NCBI GenBank assembly: GCA_965213925.1
Contig: OZ243927.1
Location: 4,352,001-4,416,000 of the forward strand
Origin: Trueperaceae bacterium
GTDB taxonomy: Bacteria > Deinococcota > Deinococci > Deinococcales > Trueperaceae
Length of the DNA: 64,000 bases
Reading direction: 5' to 3'
Positions within the stretch are counted from its first letter, which is position 1. Every line of letters begins with the position of its first letter. Both the position numbers and the translations under genes were made by a program. The notes under the pieces were generated by a model. It was not told the DNA's origin. It saw nothing but the letters and a program-made list of their open reading frames with translations, and searched no databases. Shown here one piece after another: positions 6,448-41,035 of the stretch.

Positions 6448-6558
6448 TAGCAGGTATCATCTGGTCAGCTACACTCTCACTGAAAAGAACATCGCCTAGC
6501 ACGCACTTTAAGTGATGATATCTGCGGAGAAGTGTAGCAACGGTAAATGGAACTGCTA
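6448..6558 (+). repeat. dispersed element family B, copy 1 (111 bp, MITE-like or structured)
   Basis: TAGCAG...CTGCTA ends; internal GCAGGTATCATC...GATGATATCTGC stem; homologous to 9196-9306 (reverse), 40913-41023 and 44394-44470. Confidence 0.8.
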
Positions 6559-6637
6559 TAGGTGTAGAACTCGAGTCCCTAGCCCCATCCAAAGTCTTAA
6601 CACACGAAGCGGTAGAGGCGTACTATAATCGTTGCAT

Positions 6638-8464: not shown

Positions 8465-8818
8465 ATGCCCTACACTATCAACTATTCCAACGAATTCGAG
8501 ATATGGTTCACCAACCTCAGCGAAGTGCTACAAGATGACATTCTCATCACCGTCGGTTTGCTCGAGGAGCACGGTCCTCAGTTGCGACGTCCCTACGCGG
8601 ATACGCTCGAGGGCTCCAGCTTGAGCAATCTCAAGGAGTTGCGGGTGCAACATAGAGGCGAGCCCTACCGCATCCTTTTCGCCTTCGATCCTAGACGTGA
8701 AGCGTTGCTCCTCATCGGAGGCAACAAAGCGAGTGACAAACGTTGGTACAAGCGGATGATACCGCTTGCAGAAGAGATTTTCGAACGATATTTAGCGACT
8801 TTGGAGGATGAGCCATAG
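8465..8818 (+). CDS. RelE/ParE-superfamily (Gp49-like) type II toxin
   Basis: GPQLRRPYADTLEGS..LKELRVQ..PYRILFAFDPRREALLLIGGNK pattern. Confidence 0.9.
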   Translation: MPYTINYSNEFEIWFTNLSEVLQDDILITVGLLEEHGPQLRRPYADTLEGSSLSNLKELRVQHRGEPYRILFAFDPRREALLLIGGNKASDKRWYKRMIPLAEEIFERYLATLEDEP

Positions 8819-9129
8819 CGAAACCCTACCGCAAACTAATGGAAAATTTTAGCGAGGAGCGTAAAGCGCGTATCGAGCAAAGTCAAAAGCTGCTCCTCAT
8901 GGAATATGACCTCTTATCTCAGCTTCGGAAAGACCGTGATCTAACTCAGAAAGAGCTTGCTGACGTTTTAGAGATTCGTCAATCCGCTATCTCTAAGTTG
9001 GAGAGCCAAGACGACATTATGCTTGGGACTTTAGAGCGTTATATTCACGCTTTGGGTGGCGAGTTGGAGATAAGGGCAAAATTCTCGGATGTGGACGTGA
9101 AGCTCAATCAATTCGTGCGAGGAGCCTGA
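8815..9129 (+). CDS. XRE-HTH antitoxin (HigA-like); start ambiguous (ATA at 8815 or ATG at 8839)
   Basis: LTQKELADVLEIRQSAISKLE HTH; downstream of toxin. Confidence 0.85.
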   Translation: MAKPYRKLMENFSEERKARIEQSQKLLLMEYDLLSQLRKDRDLTQKELADVLEIRQSAISKLESQDDIMLGTLERYIHALGGELEIRAKFSDVDVKLNQFVRGA

Positions 9130-9195
9130 AGCTCGAGCCCCTCTTCATGTCAAGATGGAGACAGACCAACGCTAAAGTCTGTATCATCCTCTTGT

Positions 9196-9306
9196 TAGCA
9201 GTTCCACCTATCATTGCTGCACTTCTTCGCAGATATCATCACCTAAAGTGCGTACTAAACAATGTTCTCTTTGGTGAGGGTGTAGCTGACCAGCTGATAC
9301 CTGCTA
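9196..9306 (-). repeat. family B element, copy 2 (111 bp)
   Basis: Reverse complement is colinear with 6448-6558. Confidence 0.8.
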
Positions 9307-9322
9307 TATTAAGGAGACCGAC

Positions 9323-30925: not shown

Positions 30926-32860
30926 ATGGACACCGCAGAAGAGAAGAAAAGCGCCGCCGACACGCCCACAAAAACCACCTACTACGCCACCACGCCCATC
31001 TTCTACGTCAACGCGGAGCCCCACATCGGGCACGCCTACACCACCACACTCGTGGACGTGGTGACGCGCTTTCACCGCCTCAAAGGGGACGACACCTACT
31101 TCTTGACGGGCACCGACGAGCACGGCGAGAAGATTCAGAAAGCCGCCGAGACCGCCAACCTCTCGCCGCAGGCGTACACGGACCAGATCGCGGGTCAATT
31201 CCGCGCGGTTTGGGACAGCTTGGACATCCGCTACGACGAATTCATCCGCACCACCGAGGAGCGTCACCAAAAAGTCGTCCGTGAAATTTTGCAGCGCGTG
31301 TACGACAAGGGCGACATCATCTTCGGCGAGTACGGCGGACTCTACTGCACGGGCTGCGAGCGCTACTACACCGAAAAGGAACTCGTAGACGGCAGGTGCC
31401 CACAGCATGACATCAGGCTCGAGTACCGCAGCGAAGAGAACTACTTCTTCCGCATGGAAAAGTATCGCCCTTGGCTCCGCGAAACCATCGAAGACAACCC
31501 CGTCTTCATCCGCCCCGAGCGCTACCGCAACGAGGTCTTGGGCATCCTGCGCGAGCCTATAGGCGACCTCTCGATCAGCCGCCCCCGCGCCCGCGTGCCG
31601 TGGGGCGTTCCGCTTCCTTGGGACGAGAACCACGTCACGTACGTCTGGTTCGACGCGCTCATCAACTACTTTTCCGCCCTGGAGAGCCGAGACCTGACAG
31701 AGCGGTACTGGCCGCACGCCCAACACTTCATCGCCAAAGACATCCTGAAACCGCACGGCGTCTTCTGGCCTACGATGCTCAAAGCGGCGGAGTTGCCTGT
31801 GTACCAGCACCTCAACGTGCACGGCTACTGGCTCGTAGACGGCGGCAAGATGAGCAAGTCGAAGGGGAACGTGGTGCGCCCCTTGGACCTCAAAGATACC
31901 TACGGCAACGACGCTTTTAGGTACTACCTCTTGCGTGACATGACCTTTGGGCTCGACGCGACCTTTAGCGAAGTCGGCTTGGCGGAGCGCATCAACTCGG
32001 ACTTAGCCAACGACCTCGGCAACCTCTTGAACCGCACGCTGGGGATGCTCGGGAAGTACCGTGGGGGCGTGATCGGTAAGCCGAGCGAGTTAGAGCCGTT
32101 TGACGTGGAGCTGCGCGACGCTTTCGCCGACTTGCCCCGAACCGTGAGCGACCTCTTTGACGCGCTCCAATTCGAGCGGGCGATCGAAAAAGTTTTAGAA
32201 GCGGTGCGCAAGGCGAACAAGTATATCGCCGACACGCAGCCCTGGGTTTTAGCGAGAAACGAGGCGCACGCGGCGCGTTTGGACACGGTTCTATACAACT
32301 GCGCGGAATCCTTGCGGTGCGCGTCCATCTTACTCGAGCCCATCATCCCCCAGAAGTCCCTTGAACTCCGCGAACAGCTCGGTCTCACGGGTGCGGTCAC
32401 ACTGCAAGACGCCGGTCAGTGGAACCTCACGCCGGAAAACACCCAGACGAAGCCCGGCCAGCCGCTCTTTCCGCGCATCGATATGGCGGCGTTACAAGAC
32501 GCCTTGGAGCCGAAAGAGGACGCCCTGGAGCACAAACCCGAGGTGACGATCGACGACTTCGGCAAGCTCGAGTTCCGCGTCGCTGAAGTCACCAAGGTAG
32601 AGCCGCACCCGAAAGCCGACAAGCTCTTGGTTCTATCTGTCAAGCTCGGACCCGAGGAGCGCACCATCGTCTCGGGCATCAAGCAGTTTTATAAGCCGGA
32701 GGAGCTAGTCGGTAAAAAGGTCGTGATTATCGCTAACCTCAAGCCCGTCAAGCTGCGCGGAATCGAGTCGCAGGGGATGATCTTGGCGGCGGAGGACGCC
32801 GAAACATTAAGTGTAACGACGCTGGATAGGGACATCTCGAGCGGGGCGGAGGTGCGCTAA
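30926..32860 (+). CDS. metG: methionine--tRNA ligase with C-terminal tRNA-binding domain
   Basis: HIGH, KMSKS, GTDEHG; GGAGG RBS before ATG 30926. Confidence 0.97.
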   Translation: MDTAEEKKSAADTPTKTTYYATTPIFYVNAEPHIGHAYTTTLVDVVTRFHRLKGDDTYFLTGTDEHGEKIQKAAETANLSPQAYTDQIAGQFRAVWDSLDIRYDEFIRTTEERHQKVVREILQRVYDKGDIIFGEYGGLYCTGCERYYTEKELVDGRCPQHDIRLEYRSEENYFFRMEKYRPWLRETIEDNPVFIRPERYRNEVLGILREPIGDLSISRPRARVPWGVPLPWDENHVTYVWFDALINYFSALESRDLTERYWPHAQHFIAKDILKPHGVFWPTMLKAAELPVYQHLNVHGYWLVDGGKMSKSKGNVVRPLDLKDTYGNDAFRYYLLRDMTFGLDATFSEVGLAERINSDLANDLGNLLNRTLGMLGKYRGGVIGKPSELEPFDVELRDAFADLPRTVSDLFDALQFERAIEKVLEAVRKANKYIADTQPWVLARNEAHAARLDTVLYNCAESLRCASILLEPIIPQKSLELREQLGLTGAVTLQDAGQWNLTPENTQTKPGQPLFPRIDMAALQDALEPKEDALEHKPEVTIDDFGKLEFRVAEVTKVEPHPKADKLLVLSVKLGPEERTIVSGIKQFYKPEELVGKKVVIIANLKPVKLRGIESQGMILAAEDAETLSVTTLDRDISSGAEVR

Positions 32861-32955
32861 ACGTAGTGAGCGGTGAGGTTTAGCAGTGCGTTTTGAAGTA
32901 CTCGCAAACCTCGCCGCTCAGCGTCTGTAGGTGGGGGAGATTCGGTGAAAAGTCG

Positions 32956-33351
32956 CTAAGGTGTACCCTTCAGAATGTTGACCGCTAGAGGTGCGACTTT
33001 CGCCAAACGGTCGTCATTAGTCCAAACTTGCGAGCAGCCGTAGGTTTCAGCTACAGAGAGGTGTAACGCATCCGGCGTTTTAAGACCGAACTGCGCCCGC
33101 TTCTCAGCCGCTTTTCGAAACACAGCTTCGTCTAAGTCTAAAGATGTTGTAGCAGCAAAAAACTGCTCAAAACGCTTCTCCAACATGGTGTCGCCGCGTT
33201 TGAGCGGTCCGACTGTACTCTCGAGTATGACCAGCGGTGAGATTGCAAAACCTTCGCGAGCATTTTGCCGAAACTGTTTCTCAATAGAGCTATAGAAGGT
33301 GGGGTGCTTCTCGACTAGATAGATAACGATACAACTATCGAGATAGATCAT
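32956..33351 (-). CDS. vapC: VapC PIN-domain toxin
   Basis: YLDSC, LKTPDALHL, WTNDDRL. Confidence 0.9.
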   Translation of the reverse strand: MIYLDSCIVIYLVEKHPTFYSSIEKQFRQNAREGFAISPLVILESTVGPLKRGDTMLEKRFEQFFAATTSLDLDEAVFRKAAEKRAQFGLKTPDALHLSVAETYGCSQVWTNDDRLAKVAPLAVNILKGTP

Positions 33352-33578
33352 TCATCCCAAGCGTTGCGCTCAGCTTGGATGTCTGCCTCAATTTCGTCAG
33401 GGCTGCGCGGTGAAAAGGGAATGGAGGCTAGGTGGTCGAGGAAGGTGAGCAGTGAAGTCTGAGGGCGGGTATCCTCTTCAAGAATCGTGACGAGAGCCTG
33501 CCTTGTATCGTTGAGAGTAACGGGCTCGAGCAGTTCCACCTTACCCTCTTTGTCAATTGTGGCTCTGAGCGTACGCAT
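33348..33578 (-). CDS. putative antitoxin for the adjacent VapC
   Basis: Upstream of vapC with 4-nt overlap; ends IQAERNAWDE; TAAACT-N5-ATG start. Confidence 0.8.
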   Translation of the reverse strand: MRTLRATIDKEGKVELLEPVTLNDTRQALVTILEEDTRPQTSLLTFLDHLASIPFSPRSPDEIEADIQAERNAWDE

Positions 33579-33674
33579 AGAATAGTTTAGCATCTGCTTT
33601 GTGGAGGAGGCTCGAGCCTAAATATCAGAAAAGGCTCGAATATCACGCCTAACGTGACCTGCTAAACTAACCTT

Positions 33675-33983
33675 ATGACGACACAAAAGCGACAATTCAT
33701 CACGGATGAGGCAGGTAAGCCCGTCGCAGTGATTCTGTCTTTAGAAGATTACGCCCGTGTTCGGAGTATTCTCGAGCCCGAGCAGAGCGAAGAGGACAAG
33801 CTAGCCCTCTTGCAAGAAGCGGCGAACGACGAGGCTTTCTTAGCTGATCTTTGGCAAGTTTTAGATGATGAGGCACTTTTAAGCCGTAGTGCAGATGACT
33901 TGCGAGCTGAGCTAAATAACCTCGAGCAAGATGTCGCTCAGTCTGACTTAGATGAATGGTTAGCCGCATTTGATAACGCATGA
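33675..33983 (+). CDS. putative antitoxin (acidic; GKPVAVIL motif)
   Basis: QFITDEAGKPVAVILSLEDY; ATGA overlap with the toxin. Confidence 0.75.
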   Translation: MTTQKRQFITDEAGKPVAVILSLEDYARVRSILEPEQSEEDKLALLQEAANDEAFLADLWQVLDDEALLSRSADDLRAELNNLEQDVAQSDLDEWLAAFDNA

Positions 33984-34327
33984 CTTACGAGCGGGGCGAT
34001 ATTGTTCTCGTTGACCTCGAGCCTACTATTGGTAGTGAACAAGGGTTTAAGCGCCCTTGTATTGTTATCTCAAACCTAGAGGTTATTACTGCGTCACGCT
34101 CGAGACCCCTCTACGTTATCATCCCTCTTACCCGCTCCGAAAAGCTTGTTGGACTACTTGCGCCGCGCCTTAGAGCGAGAGAAGGCGGTCTTCCCGCTGA
34201 TTCTACGGCACTAGTTATGCATGTGAGGAGCATTGACCCGAAACGAATTGTTCGCAAAGTAGGGACGCTCGATTCGGACGAGTTAGGTATAATTCAAGAG
34301 GGTTTGCGGGAGCTTTTGCAGATGTAA
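33980..34327 (+). CDS. PemK/MazF family endoribonuclease toxin
   Basis: RGDIVLVDLEPTIGSEQGFKRPCIVIS. Confidence 0.92.
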   Translation: MTYERGDIVLVDLEPTIGSEQGFKRPCIVISNLEVITASRSRPLYVIIPLTRSEKLVGLLAPRLRAREGGLPADSTALVMHVRSIDPKRIVRKVGTLDSDELGIIQEGLRELLQM

Positions 34328-34383
34328 GGCTCGAGCAGTTCCACCTTGTCCTCCTCATCAATTGTGGCTTTGAGCGTACGCAT
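34328..34383 (-). pseudogene. 5' fragment of a second copy of the 33348..33578 antitoxin, truncated at GCTCGAGC
   Basis: 50/56 nt identical to 33523-33578; encodes MRTLKATIDEEDKVELLEP then stop. Confidence 0.8.
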
Positions 34384-34406
34384 ATCCGCCAGAGCTAGAA
34401 ACACCT

Positions 34407-34703
34407 TTAATTCACCCGCCGTACCGTGTCAAGCACCGCGTCAGGGTGTTTAGCCGCTACCTCCAGGAGCATCCTCGCAGGTCCTCTAGGTTTGCGCCGC
34501 CCCTGTTCCCAACCCTCGAGCGTACGCTCGCTGATGCCGAGCAAGGCCGCAAACTTACTGCGAGACATGCTGAAACTCTCGCGGATAGCGCGAACGTCAA
34601 TGTCTGCCACTCGAGAAACCCGTGCAGCTTCGGCTTCGCCGCGCAAGATGCGCCCGCCCTCGCGCACGCTCTCTAAAAGTTCATCAAAAAGTTCGTCGTT
34701 CAT
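34407..34703 (-). CDS. HigA/NadS-like XRE-HTH antitoxin
   Basis: MNDELFDELLESVREGG...FAALLGISERTLEGWEQGRRKPRGPA. Confidence 0.9.
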   Translation of the reverse strand: MNDELFDELLESVREGGRILRGEAEAARVSRVADIDVRAIRESFSMSRSKFAALLGISERTLEGWEQGRRKPRGPARMLLEVAAKHPDAVLDTVRRVN

Positions 34704-34797
34704 AAGTAGTCCTTTACAATCTGCATGAGCGCCTTGCGCTGCTTTGGGGTGAGGTCGTCTTGTACGTTCTTCGGATAAGCGTAGAGCATGAGCAGCG
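34700..34797 (-). pseudogene. C-terminal remnant of a RelE/HigB toxin
   Basis: Reads LLMLYAYPKNVQDDLTPKQRKALMQIVKDYL* with ATGA overlap onto the antitoxin; 5' part missing. Confidence 0.8.
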
Positions 34798-34850
34798 AAT
34801 TTCTCAGTCTGTTTATGTTAGTAAAAGACACGCTATGCTAAATTGAACCT

Positions 34851-35072
34851 ATGGCTCACCTTACATTACATTTGCCGCATGAACTCAGCGAAAAGCTCAA
34901 ACACGCGGCCATGCAAGAGGACAAGGAACCTGAGAGGTTTGTGCTTGACGCGCTCGAGCGTCTGCTGGAAGAACCTTCGCTCGAGTTTATCGGGGCGTGG
35001 GAAGGTTCTAGCATAAAGCCCGAGGATGTCCTCGCCGCGCGAACATCGGGACGAGACATCGCCCTCGATTAG
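34851..35072 (+). CDS. RHH-like VapB antitoxin
   Basis: LTLHLPHELSEKLKHAA; directly upstream of vapC. Confidence 0.8.
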   Translation: MAHLTLHLPHELSEKLKHAAMQEDKEPERFVLDALERLLEEPSLEFIGAWEGSSIKPEDVLAARTSGRDIALD

Positions 35073-35468
35073 ATGTACCTGCTCGACAGCGACACGCTCA
35101 TCTTTCTGCTCCGCAATCACCAAGCTGTCGTCGCACGTTTTCAGCGAGAGAAGAAGCAGGACCTACGTACTAGCATCATCTGTATCTCCGAGTTGCACTA
35201 CGGCGCTTACAAGTCGGGCGACGTGCAAAAGCACTTGTCACCCGTTCAGCAGTTGGCGCGTTACCTCTCCGTTCTTCCGCTCGACATAGCAGGTGCTGAC
35301 CAGTTCGGGCGTCTCAAAGCGCAGCTCGAGCGTCAAGGACAGCGCCTGAACGACGCAGACTTGTGGATTGCGGCGACGGCGCTTAGCCACAACTTTACGT
35401 TGGTGACGCATAACCAGAAACACTTTGCCCGCGTTCAAGGGTTGAAGTTGGAGGATTGGGTGGGTTGA
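35073..35468 (+). CDS. vapC: VapC PIN-domain toxin
   Basis: YLLDSD, SELHYGA, DLWIAATAL, LVTHNQKHF. Confidence 0.93.
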   Translation: MYLLDSDTLIFLLRNHQAVVARFQREKKQDLRTSIICISELHYGAYKSGDVQKHLSPVQQLARYLSVLPLDIAGADQFGRLKAQLERQGQRLNDADLWIAATALSHNFTLVTHNQKHFARVQGLKLEDWVG

Positions 35469-36990
35469 GGCTCGAGGTCAGTTTCCTAAGTGAGTTTACC
35501 AGCCATGTTTAGAATTACGAGAATGCTAAAGCTCATCCGAACTGTTTAACATTGAAAGAATAAGTGGACGACTATAGATGTTCACTGCCAAATACCACAG
35601 ATAAATACTCTGAGCATCAAAGAATTGCCCATCGAATAGAAGACCGTGAGCTAAGTTGTTGCGGAAGTTGGCTCCAAATCTATCTACTAATAATCCTCTG
35701 AGGTCGTAGGAGGTATCTTTTCCAAGAACTTGTGAGATAGCAGAAAAGAACTCTTTCTCTTCCAACATCTTATTGAGGCTTATCTCATCCTGCACCCCTT
35801 TATCTGTATATTTCGAGGTAATTTCTCCCTGATAAAGAAGTATGTGACGAAGCGTTGCTTCTAGTTGAGGAACTAAGAGGTGTGAAGCCGTTAAAAAATC
35901 GCCCTGTAGACCTGCTACTATTCCCTTCAACACAGCGTACTCGTGTGCTTGAGGGATAAAGGGATTGCTGTTTGCGATGGGCGCTAGGTCCTGCAAAGTA
36001 AATATATGCGTATGTAATATTTCTTGTCGAGCAGGCTCTATAGCTATGCTGACAATTCCTTGACGGTGAATATTTTGAGACTGAAATACGTCAGCTAACA
36101 ATGTCTCATCTTGACTTCGCGGCGGGTTAGCGATGGTTCGCCCAAAACCATCGACAATTCTTGTAGGAAAGAGCTTCTTCAGTACGTATCGTTCTTCAGC
36201 AGCTTTGGCGCTTTCAACTAACATGTCAAAAGATAGGGGAGGTTGTAATCGAGCAAATTTTAGAAAAGAAGAAAGGAAATCTTGCGCTGTAACGGCTTCA
36301 ATAGCTCTGTGTCGCATCTTTTCTACTTCCGGGTTATCTTTGAGCGAAACTGAAGTAGAAACCATCTGCTCTTTGGCTTCTTTCTGTACTTTTAAGAGTT
36401 GCCTGTGTAACTCGCCTACCCTCTCCTGAGTATCAGAAATTGACCGATAGATGTGTATTGCTTTTTCCAACTGATACGTAACTTGAAACCGCACCAGGTT
36501 AGGGTTCTTCAAGCTTAAATTAGCTGCTTTTACCCACGTCTCAGCACTGTTGATAATAGCTTGTCTCGCGCTGTCTTCGTCTCCAAGCTTTTGGTAACAT
36601 CTTTCTGCTAACTTCCAATGCTCTTCTGCCCTAGACCAACTAGGTTCTGAGCTTCCCTCTTCGTTTTTAGCAAGCTTTTCTGCTAATTGGGCGAACTGGT
36701 TTATGTCACCGTAGTCGTTGTCAATCAGAAGGTGAATGAGTCGGTTGGAATAGAAAAGGGAATCTTGACCATCCTTTCGTGTGACGCACTTTTCAATGTA
36801 TTCGAGGATGTTACTGATCTCAGGCTTCTTCCTCAAGCTTTTCGCTAAATTTAGTGCGCGAGTCAACGCATAAACAGGTTCGACCCATCTTTCTGAACTA
36901 TCAGTGCGTTTAGCGTAATCTTGATACGCTAATATAGCAACTTCTGCACTTTGGTAGTCCTTCTTGAATTTCCATAAGACATCACCAATC

Positions 36991-37873
36991 ACCCCAATTC
37001 GGAAAAGGGAAATTCAAAGCTCAAATGCCCCTAAACGGCTGAGTTGGTAAGCGAGCAAGGTGGTGTAAACGTGCAGGATGCAGCCCACCGTCGAGCGGTA
37101 GGGTCTGTCAGAGAGTCCAAGTCTATCCAAGGACGAGAAGACCGACTCAACGATGCGGTGTCCTTGGTAAAGCCTCTGCTCACGCTTGGGCGGGGGTAGC
37201 TGGTTGCTGCGGCGCGGGGTTATAAGGTCAACCGCTTGGGAGGCAACGTCGGCTTTAAGCTCGGAGCTGATATAGCCTTTATCGGCGGTTACAATGGCGT
37301 AAGTGAGTTTGTCTAGTAGGCGAGGCGCGACCTTAACATCATGTTCGTTCGCGCCTCGCAGCAGTACCTCACAGAGTCTGCCTGTATCGTCCACACGCGC
37401 ATGAAGCCGAAAGCCATAGAAGGTGGTGTTATGGACGTGGTCACGCCCATAACTGCCCGCAAGCTTGGTCCTTTTAGCACGGGCAAAATCTACTACTTCT
37501 AGTTTCTTCGAGTCGAGGTGCTGTTTCGTCGTGTTATGCCCGGTGCAAAGCTGTTTAACCGCGAGAATAATCTGTCCTATCAGGAGGCGCTTACGCTCAC
37601 AAAACGTTGAGGGTACAGGTACGTCCACGCCGAACGATGCAGCAACTTCAAGCATCTTCCGGCTATAGCGAAAACTCGACAGCTTCTGATAGACCGCTAA
37701 GGCGATGATGAACGAGTCTGGAAAAACAGGAGCACGTCCTTGAGGGGCTTTTCTACGCTTCTTGAGGGGTAAACGTTCGACGGCTTGTATAATCTCTTCG
37801 AGGGTTGGGATTTTGCGCATACATCATTGCAACCCTCACTTCTCCCGCTGTCAAATCTTTTCCGAATTGGCGT
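36991..37873 (-). mobile_element. IS982-family insertion sequence (883 bp)
   Basis: 17-bp TIRs ACCCCAATTCGGAAAAG / ACGCCAATTCGGAAAAG; 5-bp target duplication CAATC (36986-36990, 37874-37878). Confidence 0.88.
37014..37820 (-). CDS. DDE transposase (IS982-like)
   Basis: LDSKKL, FYGFRLH, ANEHD, ADKGYIS, RIVESVFS. Confidence 0.9.
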   Translation of the reverse strand: MRKIPTLEEIIQAVERLPLKKRRKAPQGRAPVFPDSFIIALAVYQKLSSFRYSRKMLEVAASFGVDVPVPSTFCERKRLLIGQIILAVKQLCTGHNTTKQHLDSKKLEVVDFARAKRTKLAGSYGRDHVHNTTFYGFRLHARVDDTGRLCEVLLRGANEHDVKVAPRLLDKLTYAIVTADKGYISSELKADVASQAVDLITPRRSNQLPPPKREQRLYQGHRIVESVFSSLDRLGLSDRPYRSTVGCILHVYTTLLAYQLSRLGAFEL

Positions 37874-38302
37874 CAATCCTACTCTTCAAAGCAGCATTAC
37901 TGATATTCCCAAGAATACTCTTTAGTATCTCTGCGTCAGTATCTGCTAGCTGTCCACTGTTAAATAATCGGCTGCTTAACTGCTCAGGATTACCAAAAAC
38001 CTCCTTTTGATCAGGGTGAAATGGTAGAAGAACAACTACTGCTAGCAGATCAAATAGATGTGCAAACCGCAAATTCTTTTGTTTAATATATTCATTGTGC
38101 TTTTCAACAAGAGGGCTATAAAGTTTGCGCACATTGTTGTCGGGTAAAACTTCATCTAAATTTAGTTGTTGCAACTCTAAATCTGAAAACGAAAACTTGT
38201 TCATATATATAGCTATTTTACGCCTTCTTTCGCTTCTACACGAAGAATCCCGATGCCCTTCCTCAAAATTTGATAAGGGTTTGTAGTCGTATTCCATCGC
38301 CC

Positions 38303-38419
38303 TCAAACTACACTCATCCCCCCATCCACCCCTACAACCTGCCCCGTCATAAACCCCGACGCATCCGAGCCCAAAAGTACCGCCACCCCTTTCAGGTCCT
38401 CTGACCCACCCACATGACC
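38303..38419 (-). pseudogene. 3' remnant of an SDR oxidoreductase gene
   Basis: GHVGGSEDLKGVAVLLGSDASGFMTGQVVGVDGG matches the classical SDR C-terminus. Confidence 0.7.
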
Positions 38420-40912: not shown

Positions 40913-41023
40913 TAGCAGGTATCATCTGGTTTGAGCCAATCTCACGAGATAAAACATCGTTCAGCACGCACTTTAGGGGATGATACCTGCGTGATTCAAA
41001 CTCAGTACTTCTGATAACCGCTA
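40913..41023 (+). repeat. family B element, copy 3 (111 bp)
   Basis: Perfect GCAGGTATCATC...GATGATACCTGC stem; TAGC...GCTA ends. Confidence 0.75.
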
Positions 41024-41035
41024 TACTAAAAAGTA

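Follow-up and report, generated by a model that had tools for sequence, protein, structure and literature searches.

Toxin–antitoxin modules are joined, lost and reordered at the abundant palindrome CTCGAG in a Trueperaceae genome

Highly iterated palindromes and other exchange systems

Integrons are recognised by the integrase IntI, by attC sites (hairpins of the form RYYYAAC...GTTRRRY) that follow their cassettes, and by circular cassette intermediates. In dif modules (pdif), toxin–antitoxin (TA) and defence modules are swapped at 28–32 bp XerC/XerD sites by an enzyme whose gene lies elsewhere. The function of highly iterated palindromes (HIPs), HIP1 (GCGATCGC) of the cyanobacteria among them, has been a question for three decades. 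The present analysis concerns a 64,000-nt stretch of a Trueperaceae genome (contig OZ243927.1, positions 4,352,001–4,416,000; hereafter the window), in which an island of TA modules lies downstream of the methionyl-tRNA synthetase gene metG. In this island and elsewhere TA modules are joined, lost and reordered at the palindrome CTCGAG; the motif marks a minority of module junctions. A preliminary description of the window had likened the array both to an integron and to HIP1-associated recombination in cyanobacteria; the latter is judged the right comparison.

The available parts of PMC13756078, PMC4390886 and bioRxiv 2024.09.10.611283 report a 352-bp deletion between two copies of HIP1, site-specific recombination of plasmids, and integration up to 7-fold better when HIP1 lies in the homology arm (PMC9239245 and PMC5861425, also in part, are further sources for the comparison). 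As cited, the evidence for recombination at HIP1 comprises a single deletion obtained under selection, work with plasmids and assays of transformation. In the present case the palindrome and the phylum are different, and the evidence consists of addiction and defence modules that have been gained, lost and reordered in nature. Another related process is homology-facilitated illegitimate recombination, described in S. pneumoniae, A. baylyi and P. stutzeri with 3–10 bp of microhomology; the accessible text of the source names no single preferred word (PMC3240628).

CTCGAG resembles HIP1 and the alternative HIPs of cyanobacteria in being a top-ranked GC-rich palindrome that is conserved and present in coding and non-coding DNA. 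The 4.75-Mb genome contains 7,299 sites (1,538 per Mb, 2.4-fold over a second-order model), and CTCGAG is its top palindromic 6-mer; GCTCGAGC is its commonest 8-mer, with 1,751 sites (369 per Mb, 4.8-fold over the same kind of model), and occurs 29 times in the window as against 4.6 times in shuffles. One CTCGAG occurs per 650 bp genome-wide, and close to TA genes the figure is 22 per 10 kb; the density is 17.5 per 10 kb in non-coding compared to 15.0 in coding DNA. Between genome G000 and its congener G001 the conservation of CTCGAG is 0.653 (median 0.359), second of 1,983 hexamers with codon effects included. ACCTCT and AAGAGG are about equal to it in abundance and conservation and are therefore used as control words below. 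The 8-mer exceeds 200 copies per Mb in 19 of 25 genomes of the family (counts over rounded genome sizes). It is also abundant in a second family (1,540–2,544 sites), and is rare in a third family (20–199) and in one further genus (5–19). In non-coding DNA the flanks of CTCGAG are lopsided, with C exceeding G over about 15 nt on the 3' side, and a G-rich run stands ahead of CTCGAG at many ends of homology with G001.

By those characteristics of a HIP that could be checked, CTCGAG behaves as one, at lower enrichment: it is the most frequent and over-represented GC-rich palindrome, it is conserved beyond comparable words, and the comparison of alleles points to rearrangement between its direct copies. 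It differs from HIP1 in phylum and word, and in enrichment, which for HIP1 is 55–228 by another method. It also differs in that no cognate methyltransferase was identified: G000 has several N6/N4 genes, none assignable to CTCGAG, and no C5 enzyme was found in the three genomes of the genus. The evidence differs too: it comes from filled and empty alleles that occur naturally at several loci, and not from selected mutants or plasmids. Searches of open-access papers, supplements excluded, turned up nothing that describes CTCGAG in this group as a HIP or a hotspot of recombination, or that places HIP1 at natural breakpoints of islands.

The system is neither an integron nor a dif module. Like an integron, it is a tandem series of self-contained TA modules that have promoters of their own; its point of recombination lies just past the last stop, and its order varies between genomes. 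Unlike an integron, it has neither IntI nor attC: IntI (TIGR02249) is above the cut-off in none of the three genomes (best 61.5 against 265 bits), and a plain pattern search (no covariance model) found no attC on either strand of 32861–35600. Its longer repeats are locus-specific and come from flanking genes, with only 6–10 bp common between loci, and the label of an integron-like array is not retained. The island shows instead a possible origin of integron-like TA arrays without an integrase. As in dif modules, TA and defence modules are exchanged at short sites; unlike dif modules, the CTCGAG junctions have no 28–32 bp two-armed site, and the boundary repeats vary by locus. Repeats resembling dif modules, at C1:211322 and C1:2686034, end away from CTCGAG. 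Homology-facilitated illegitimate recombination offers a closer likeness—long homology on one side, microhomology on the other, kilobase gains and losses, and a ComEC-bearing host, ComEC being present in all three genomes of the genus. It differs in that one palindrome is over-used here and the products are tandem stacks with a duplicated flank.

The array downstream of metG and its alleles

The conserved metG gene (30929..32860, + strand; Pfam tRNA-synt_1g) is the left anchor of a variable island with 52% GC, compared to 60% in metG itself. It is followed by vapC1 with the antitoxin A1 (−), phd-mazF (+), a fragment of an A1 gene, higA with a toxin remnant (−), vapB2-vapC2 (+) and a split DUF7380/DUF4209 gene. 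The array consists of two tandem units, U1 (33523–34327, 805 bp) and U2 (34328–35468, 1141 bp). Each opens with GGCTCGAG and the 5' end of an A1-family antitoxin, and each closes at a toxin stop with the next GGCTCGAG directly after it. The opening of U1 is a first repeat copy (33523..33579, +; repeat family D1) containing the 5' end of the intact A1 gene. That of U2 is a second copy (34328..34384, +), the 5' fragment of another A1 allele cut at CTCGAG. Positions 34328–34383 are identical to 33523–33578 at 50 of 56 nucleotides, and the fragment stops 2 nt past its own CTCGAG. U2 is further bracketed by a 9-bp direct repeat, AGGCTCGAG, at 34327..34335 and 35468..35476.

The palindrome GGCTCGAGC is present at 33609 and at 34328, the latter being the first base past the mazF TAA; after the vapC2 TGA, GGCTCGAG stands at 35469, where the following base is G, so that the full 8-mer is not completed. 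The bracketing of the MazF module, the antitoxin fragment breaking off at the palindrome and the palindrome behind the second vapC stop had all been described before and are confirmed as real features of the DNA. The 8-mer had been taken as the junction word; a palindromic word stands, but the active word is CTCGAG, with GGCTCGAGCC as its preferred context. One GGCTCGAGCC, at 33609..33618, lies between divergent leaderless promoters, and its counterpart marks the start of homology between two other genomes of the family (below).

The genes of the island are mostly recognisable by profile. On the minus strand, vapC1 (32956..33351; PF01850, E 5e-16) encodes a PIN-domain toxin and A1 (33348..33578; no Pfam match) an antitoxin beginning MRTLRATID...VELLEP, in which the CTCGAG at 33525–33530 forms a Leu-Glu codon pair. 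Homologues of A1 precede PIN genes in the two genomes just mentioned and at G000 C1:1255726. U1 contains a Phd/RelB-like antitoxin (33675..33983, +) and the mazF/PemK toxin (33980..34327, +; PF02452, E 7e-22). In U2 there is a HigA-like helix-turn-helix antitoxin (34407..34703, −; PF01381, with NCBIfam NadS/MqsA-like below the cut-off) and the 3' remnant of a toxin (about 34700..34801, −), seen in translation. The remnant has no profile match and is presumably HigB/RelE-like from a motif; its break lies away from CTCGAG. These are followed by a leaderless vapB2-like antitoxin (34851..35072, +; weak RelB-like match) and the PIN-domain toxin vapC2 (35073..35468, +; PF01850, E 4e-16; NCBIfam VapC). 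Behind both mazF and vapC2, CTCGAG begins 3 nt past the stop. With ATG 33578 as the start of the antitoxin, a choice supported by homologues, each of the three intact modules in the array has a TAAACT/TAAATT box 5–6 nt ahead of its ATG. A leaderless −10 box for each intact module, as proposed earlier, thus stands for these three; the HigA module in the array is not intact, having only a toxin remnant.

Alleles from other strains are known from metagenome contigs, aligned at 85% likeness, a setting that calls for caution with metagenomes; what follows covers 15 of the 29 joints and 20 of the 141 loose ends. Runs X1 and X2 are one sample, which may be the source of the window, and run X3 is a different one. 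An X3 contig of 2,450 nt shows 21 differences from the right flank over 1,520 nt, and it is free of the insertion sequence that splits the DUF7380/DUF4209 gene in the window. Three X3 joints of equal depth (22.3), taken to belong to this contig, run from an A1 5' end through unknown sequence to a diverged mazF. This mazF is joined at the palindrome, 34324 to 35466, so that mazF and not vapC2 ends at the right-hand AGGCTCGAG, and U2 is therefore absent there. The X3 letters before 34328 extend the A1 frame (LLEP-ITLNA, hand-read), and the fragment in the window is therefore the truncated 5' part of an allele present in intact form in the X3 population. In two other X3 contigs 33580/33581 is joined to 34385, and U1 is therefore absent. 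An inserted segment at 33523–34328 had been suggested earlier; 34328–35468 is the better-documented unit.

Two Trueperaceae metagenome-assembled genomes, L280 and L281, have the same modules in other combinations and in a different genomic place. They are 94% alike starting exactly at the CTCGAG before the A1 promoter, which corresponds to 33611 in the window. Upstream of this breakpoint L280 has the DUF4209 gene, as if both U1 and U2 were absent. L281 has phd-mazF, and behind its stop come G-CTCGAG and an A1 5' fragment, so that the junction at 34328 of the window is repeated there. The A1 fragments resemble their own A1 gene (50/56 in the window, 52/56 in L281) more than each other (44/56), and the mazF/A1 junction has therefore either recurred or been homogenised locally. 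Remnants of the mazF 3' end (the last ~55 nt), all ending at CTCGAG, occur in five places in L281 and two in L280, and look as scars of crossover at CTCGAG would.

Within the genus, homology of G000 with G001 and with a third genome, G002, stops at the metG stop codon. G002 has no TA array at metG; in G001 the A1 gene is split by a miniature element, and the start of phd is the same while the end of phd and mazF are different. Comparing the metG locus across relatives had been proposed as a test. The X3 junction of 34324 with 35466 does lie at the palindrome; the point at 33847, in phd, where homology with the G001 allele ends, and the exit of G002 from the island do not. An apparent resumption of G001 homology exactly at 33523 was discounted, since the miniature element, with a TA dinucleotide duplication, lies ~5 nt further and the antitoxin continues beyond it. 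In metagenomes of the JGI no conspecific allele was found (0 pattern matches; the best MetG is 80% identical). The miniature element belongs to a dispersed 80–118 nt element with TAGCAG...CTGCTA ends, which has dozens of matches in the genome. Copies in the window lie at 9196–9310, about 6448–6560 and 40913–41028.

A contig from X1/X2 joins 35467 to 34327 with nine letters in common (AGGCTCGAG), which is compatible with a circle, a duplication or a third unit. Read as a circle, it would suit a dedicated enzyme at CTCGAG—an endonuclease or nickase acting at the (possibly methylated) site, after which fragments with matching ends are rejoined, or a recombinase acting in trans that handles each stretch between two CTCGAG copies as a cassette and releases circles. 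Such an enzyme would also be in keeping with repeats that end 0–4 nt from CTCGAG, with the same mazF-to-A1 junction in two species, and with the site-specific plasmid recombination linked to HIP1 in work cited by the available text of PMC4390886. It is nevertheless quite improbable. A further X1 joint, of equal depth (6.2), connects 34384 to 38302 and suits a third tandem unit better than a circle. Besides the shortfall in IntI score, a search of G000 and 24 further family genomes found no XhoI-family nuclease. The closest tyrosine recombinase gene is 400 kb from the array, and 68–401 kb separate such genes from the nine loci checked. The words in common at four clean junctions are 10, 9, 9 and 7 nt, and random site pairs reach 9 nt in 9% (P 0.003, four junctions); 9–10 nt in three of the four exceeds the need of a six-base cut. 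Simple cutting and rejoining at the XhoI site is at odds with the same two observations, the absent nuclease and the three junctions of at least 9 nt.

Genome-wide association of CTCGAG with module junctions

Whether TA boundaries coincide with the motif beyond its density, another question raised by the preliminary description, was answered from the stops of TA modules. Of 54 toxin-family matches in G000, 49 were kept (four long-frame matches and one fragment dropped), and in G001 39 of 54, the others being 13 outside the examined 2.49 Mb, a long frame and a duplicate. An automatic rule defined the ends of the modules. In 8 of these 88 modules CTCGAG begins 1–4 nt past the last stop, compared to 59 of 4,471 called genes (1.3%); the expectation is about 1.1 of 88, or 0.78 if the density around TA genes is used. 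Without three flagged cases the count is 5 of 85 (P 0.001–0.005), and in G001 alone it is 3 of 39 (P 0.012). In a further nine of the 88, CTCGAG lies inside the last 21 nt. One of the stops described earlier is distant from metG: a higB-higA pair (8465..9139, +; PF05973, PF01381) whose last stop, at 9129, is followed by AGCTCGAGCC, as had been stated. Separately, a vapC at G000 C1:2347835-2348231 (L192), which was excluded from the eight, carries one inserted base close to its end when compared with G001; read in the G001 frame, it has CTCGAG at +2 after the stop.

A mutational or repair ratchet, converting near-matches to CTCGAG in unconstrained DNA at stops and junctions, might have written the motif in later. 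A ratchet has been proposed for HIP1 in the available part of PMC13756078, and the higher density of CTCGAG in non-coding DNA is in line with one. However, CTCGAG follows the stop in only 6 of 303 short accessory genes, which are thus hardly enriched. Nor is the step from two copies to a single one at an empty site an outcome of point mutation, or the duplications that start inside Leu-Glu codons a product of it. The ratchet is accordingly very unlikely.

Local direct repeats give the second test. After removal of dispersed and intragenic repeats, 135 loci remained in G000 and the examined part of G001. A repeat end lies at CTCGAG in 11 of the 35 loci that bracket only small genes (at most 210 residues) and in none of the other 100 (Fisher P 9e-8). 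Permutation at the local density gives a mean of 3.1 loci (P 0.0002, or P 0.0008 for ten when an orthologous pair is counted once). In all 19 repeat pairs identity continues for 0–4 nt past CTCGAG. By Pfam, the cargo at all 11 loci consists of TA or defence genes, the families being PIN, PemK, DUF433/DUF5615, MNT/HepT, HigB/HTH, ParE-like, DUF4160/DUF2442, Uma2 and GmrSD. The repeats are locus-specific, several being 5' or 3' pieces of neighbouring genes. About ten independent loci are marked by CTCGAG, above matched control words.

The third test concerns breakpoints against G001. From 633 collinear block pairs, 90 clean insertions or deletions (indels) of at least 150 bp were obtained, and 68 after 22 consisting mostly of repeats had been dropped. 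CTCGAG is contained in 25 of their 136 junction windows and in 13, 6, 6 and 13 windows of the shifted controls (P 0.0009 against the after-stop rate). Three of the 68 have CTCGAG at both ends and a single copy at the empty site, where 0.27 would be expected (P 0.003). The first is an MNT-HepT module of 887 bp that directly follows a vapBC pair and is enclosed by two copies of GGCTCGAGCC; in the second, half a vapC and its partner were lost between two copies of CCACTCGAG; the third is a 2-kb gene pair at TCTCGAG. More broadly, 46 of 1,270 homology ends fall at CTCGAG compared to 25.4 in simulation (1.8-fold, P 1.5e-4), the simulation cutting real alignments at random so that the conservation bias is built in. 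The control words are near expectation (17 vs 15.3, 21 vs 17.2, 15 vs 21.6): ACCTCT, AAGAGG and the GC-rich CGCCGC show no excess. Raw enrichments at homology ends (63 vs 19.6; 87 vs about 46) are inflated by conservation and were set aside. A 14.6-kb 'insertion' at G000 C1:2146188-2160800 is a rearrangement, since its genes align elsewhere in G001, and was not counted.

The excess at CTCGAG goes beyond its abundance and conservation, which bears on the simplest alternative: plain illegitimate recombination in DNA where CTCGAG happens to be abundant, GC-rich in context, conserved and encoded as Leu-Glu in small acidic TA proteins. The spacing of the motif, its density near TA genes and its rank in conservation all speak for this, as do the majority of modules and some breaks, which lack CTCGAG; according to the accessible text of PMC3240628, homology-facilitated illegitimate recombination works with any 3–10 bp microhomology. 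Yet the excess survives correction for local density and for conservation bias, and the matched words have none, which makes the alternative unlikely. The interpretation first offered for the window, crossover at the palindrome giving an integron-like array, is partly supported. The crossover is borne out by filled and empty alleles here and elsewhere and by three genome-wide tests with controls, and the integron label falls away.

A crossover model and neighbouring arrays

CTCGAG is a hyper-abundant, conserved palindrome, and host recombination probably crosses over preferentially across 7–10 bp centred on it. Different strains would carry different modules at one island. Donor DNA from another strain, probably arriving by natural transformation, would pair by long homology on one side, while on the other a crossover would take place between non-allelic CTCGAG sites, in this island the site behind a toxin stop and that within the A1 antitoxin. 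The crossover would stack both cargoes and duplicate the 25–200 nt flank between palindrome and cargo; the reverse crossover would delete one unit and leave a single palindrome. The duplicated pieces could then act as homology arms for more reordering. The chemistry of the crossover, transformation as the route of entry and the direction of each event are inferred. The junctions have the 7–10 nt words and homologous flanks of homology-facilitated illegitimate recombination, a pattern that is no proof of the route. Excision of a circle and its re-entry would yield the same product as one-sided integration, of which the latter is the simplest route. Single-strand annealing by DdrB was considered and set aside, as a search of G000 and 24 further genomes of the family yielded no DdrB. 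If crossover is centred on CTCGAG in this way, swapping the hexamer is predicted to abolish the hotspot.

Several observations weigh against preferential crossover at CTCGAG. Most modules lack the motif at their ends: 80 of the 88 TA modules do not adjoin CTCGAG, and 24 of the 35 small-gene repeat loci end away from it, ~14 of which look TA-like by eye. The small-gene class was itself defined after the list had been inspected, and two of the 11 loci are orthologous. When all site pairs were scanned loosely for one-sided repeats, the rates were 1.95 and 3.49 per 10,000, within the 0.8–7.2 of the control words. Genome-wide the excess amounts to only about 20 of 1,270 homology ends, and non-coding ends alone are marginal (16 vs 10.1, P 0.05). 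Indels of 15–149 nt are unlinked to the motif, and none of ten junction words of at least 6 nt contains CTCGAG. The searches identified no cognate methyltransferase or nuclease. At the island itself, the X3 joints were read from metagenome contigs aligned at 85% likeness, the short side being 33 letters, G002 leaves at the metG stop without CTCGAG, and the G001 swap point at 33847 and the higB break also lack it. Separately, CTCGAG is found frequently 2–4 nt past the stop rather than anywhere downstream.

A broader role can be suggested tentatively. CTCGAG may be a genome-wide crossover signal recognised by a dedicated pathway of repair or uptake, possibly one guided by methylation. Any segment from one CTCGAG to another would then be a potential cassette, exiting as a circle with its own homology arm and re-entering at a matching gene. 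This possibility, held with some doubt, would if true amount to an integrase-free cassette system on a highly iterated palindrome and provide a direct clue to the purpose of HIP1. The breakpoint test is directly applicable to pairs of cyanobacterial genomes for HIP1.

A second TA and defence array lies at G000 C1:185000-189100 (L191, L199) and G001 C4:4179400-4184000 (L105), with five copies per genome of a 30–35 nt repeat that begins at CTCGAG. G000 and G001 have its modules in different orders, and the site is present twice in G002. Among 41 genomes the site occurs only in G000 (4), G001 (5) and G002 (2), and in the first two it is confined to this array. A 620-bp event at C1:187.6-188.2 kb is a reordering between the 30–35 nt repeats rather than a clean indel and was not counted above. 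At G000 C1:2915470-2920300 there is a TA array whose repeated spacer is of another kind (22 repeat pairs) and ends away from CTCGAG. At G000 C1:3965209-3966243 two small genes, a BrnT-type pair by eye, lie between CRISPR-like repeats. At G000 C1:1255466-1256544 an A1-type antitoxin and a PIN toxin are enclosed by 222-bp repeats that are 99.5% identical; the pair is a very recent gain or duplication, and CTCGAG stands 2 nt before the first repeat copy only.

The right flank of the metG island is the DUF7380/DUF4209 gene (35526..38306, −), which is intact in X3 and L280. In the window it is split by an 883-bp DDE insertion sequence (36991–37873), five near-identical copies of which are found elsewhere. 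Other words of the genome also depart from expectation. The most over-represented 8-mer is GACCTCTT/AAGAGGTC (3,005 sites, 10.5-fold), which has no strand bias and no excess at breakpoints. The words avoided genome-wide are GGCGCC (0.03 of expectation), TTTAAA, GAGCTC, CCATGG, CCCGGG, GGCC and GATC.

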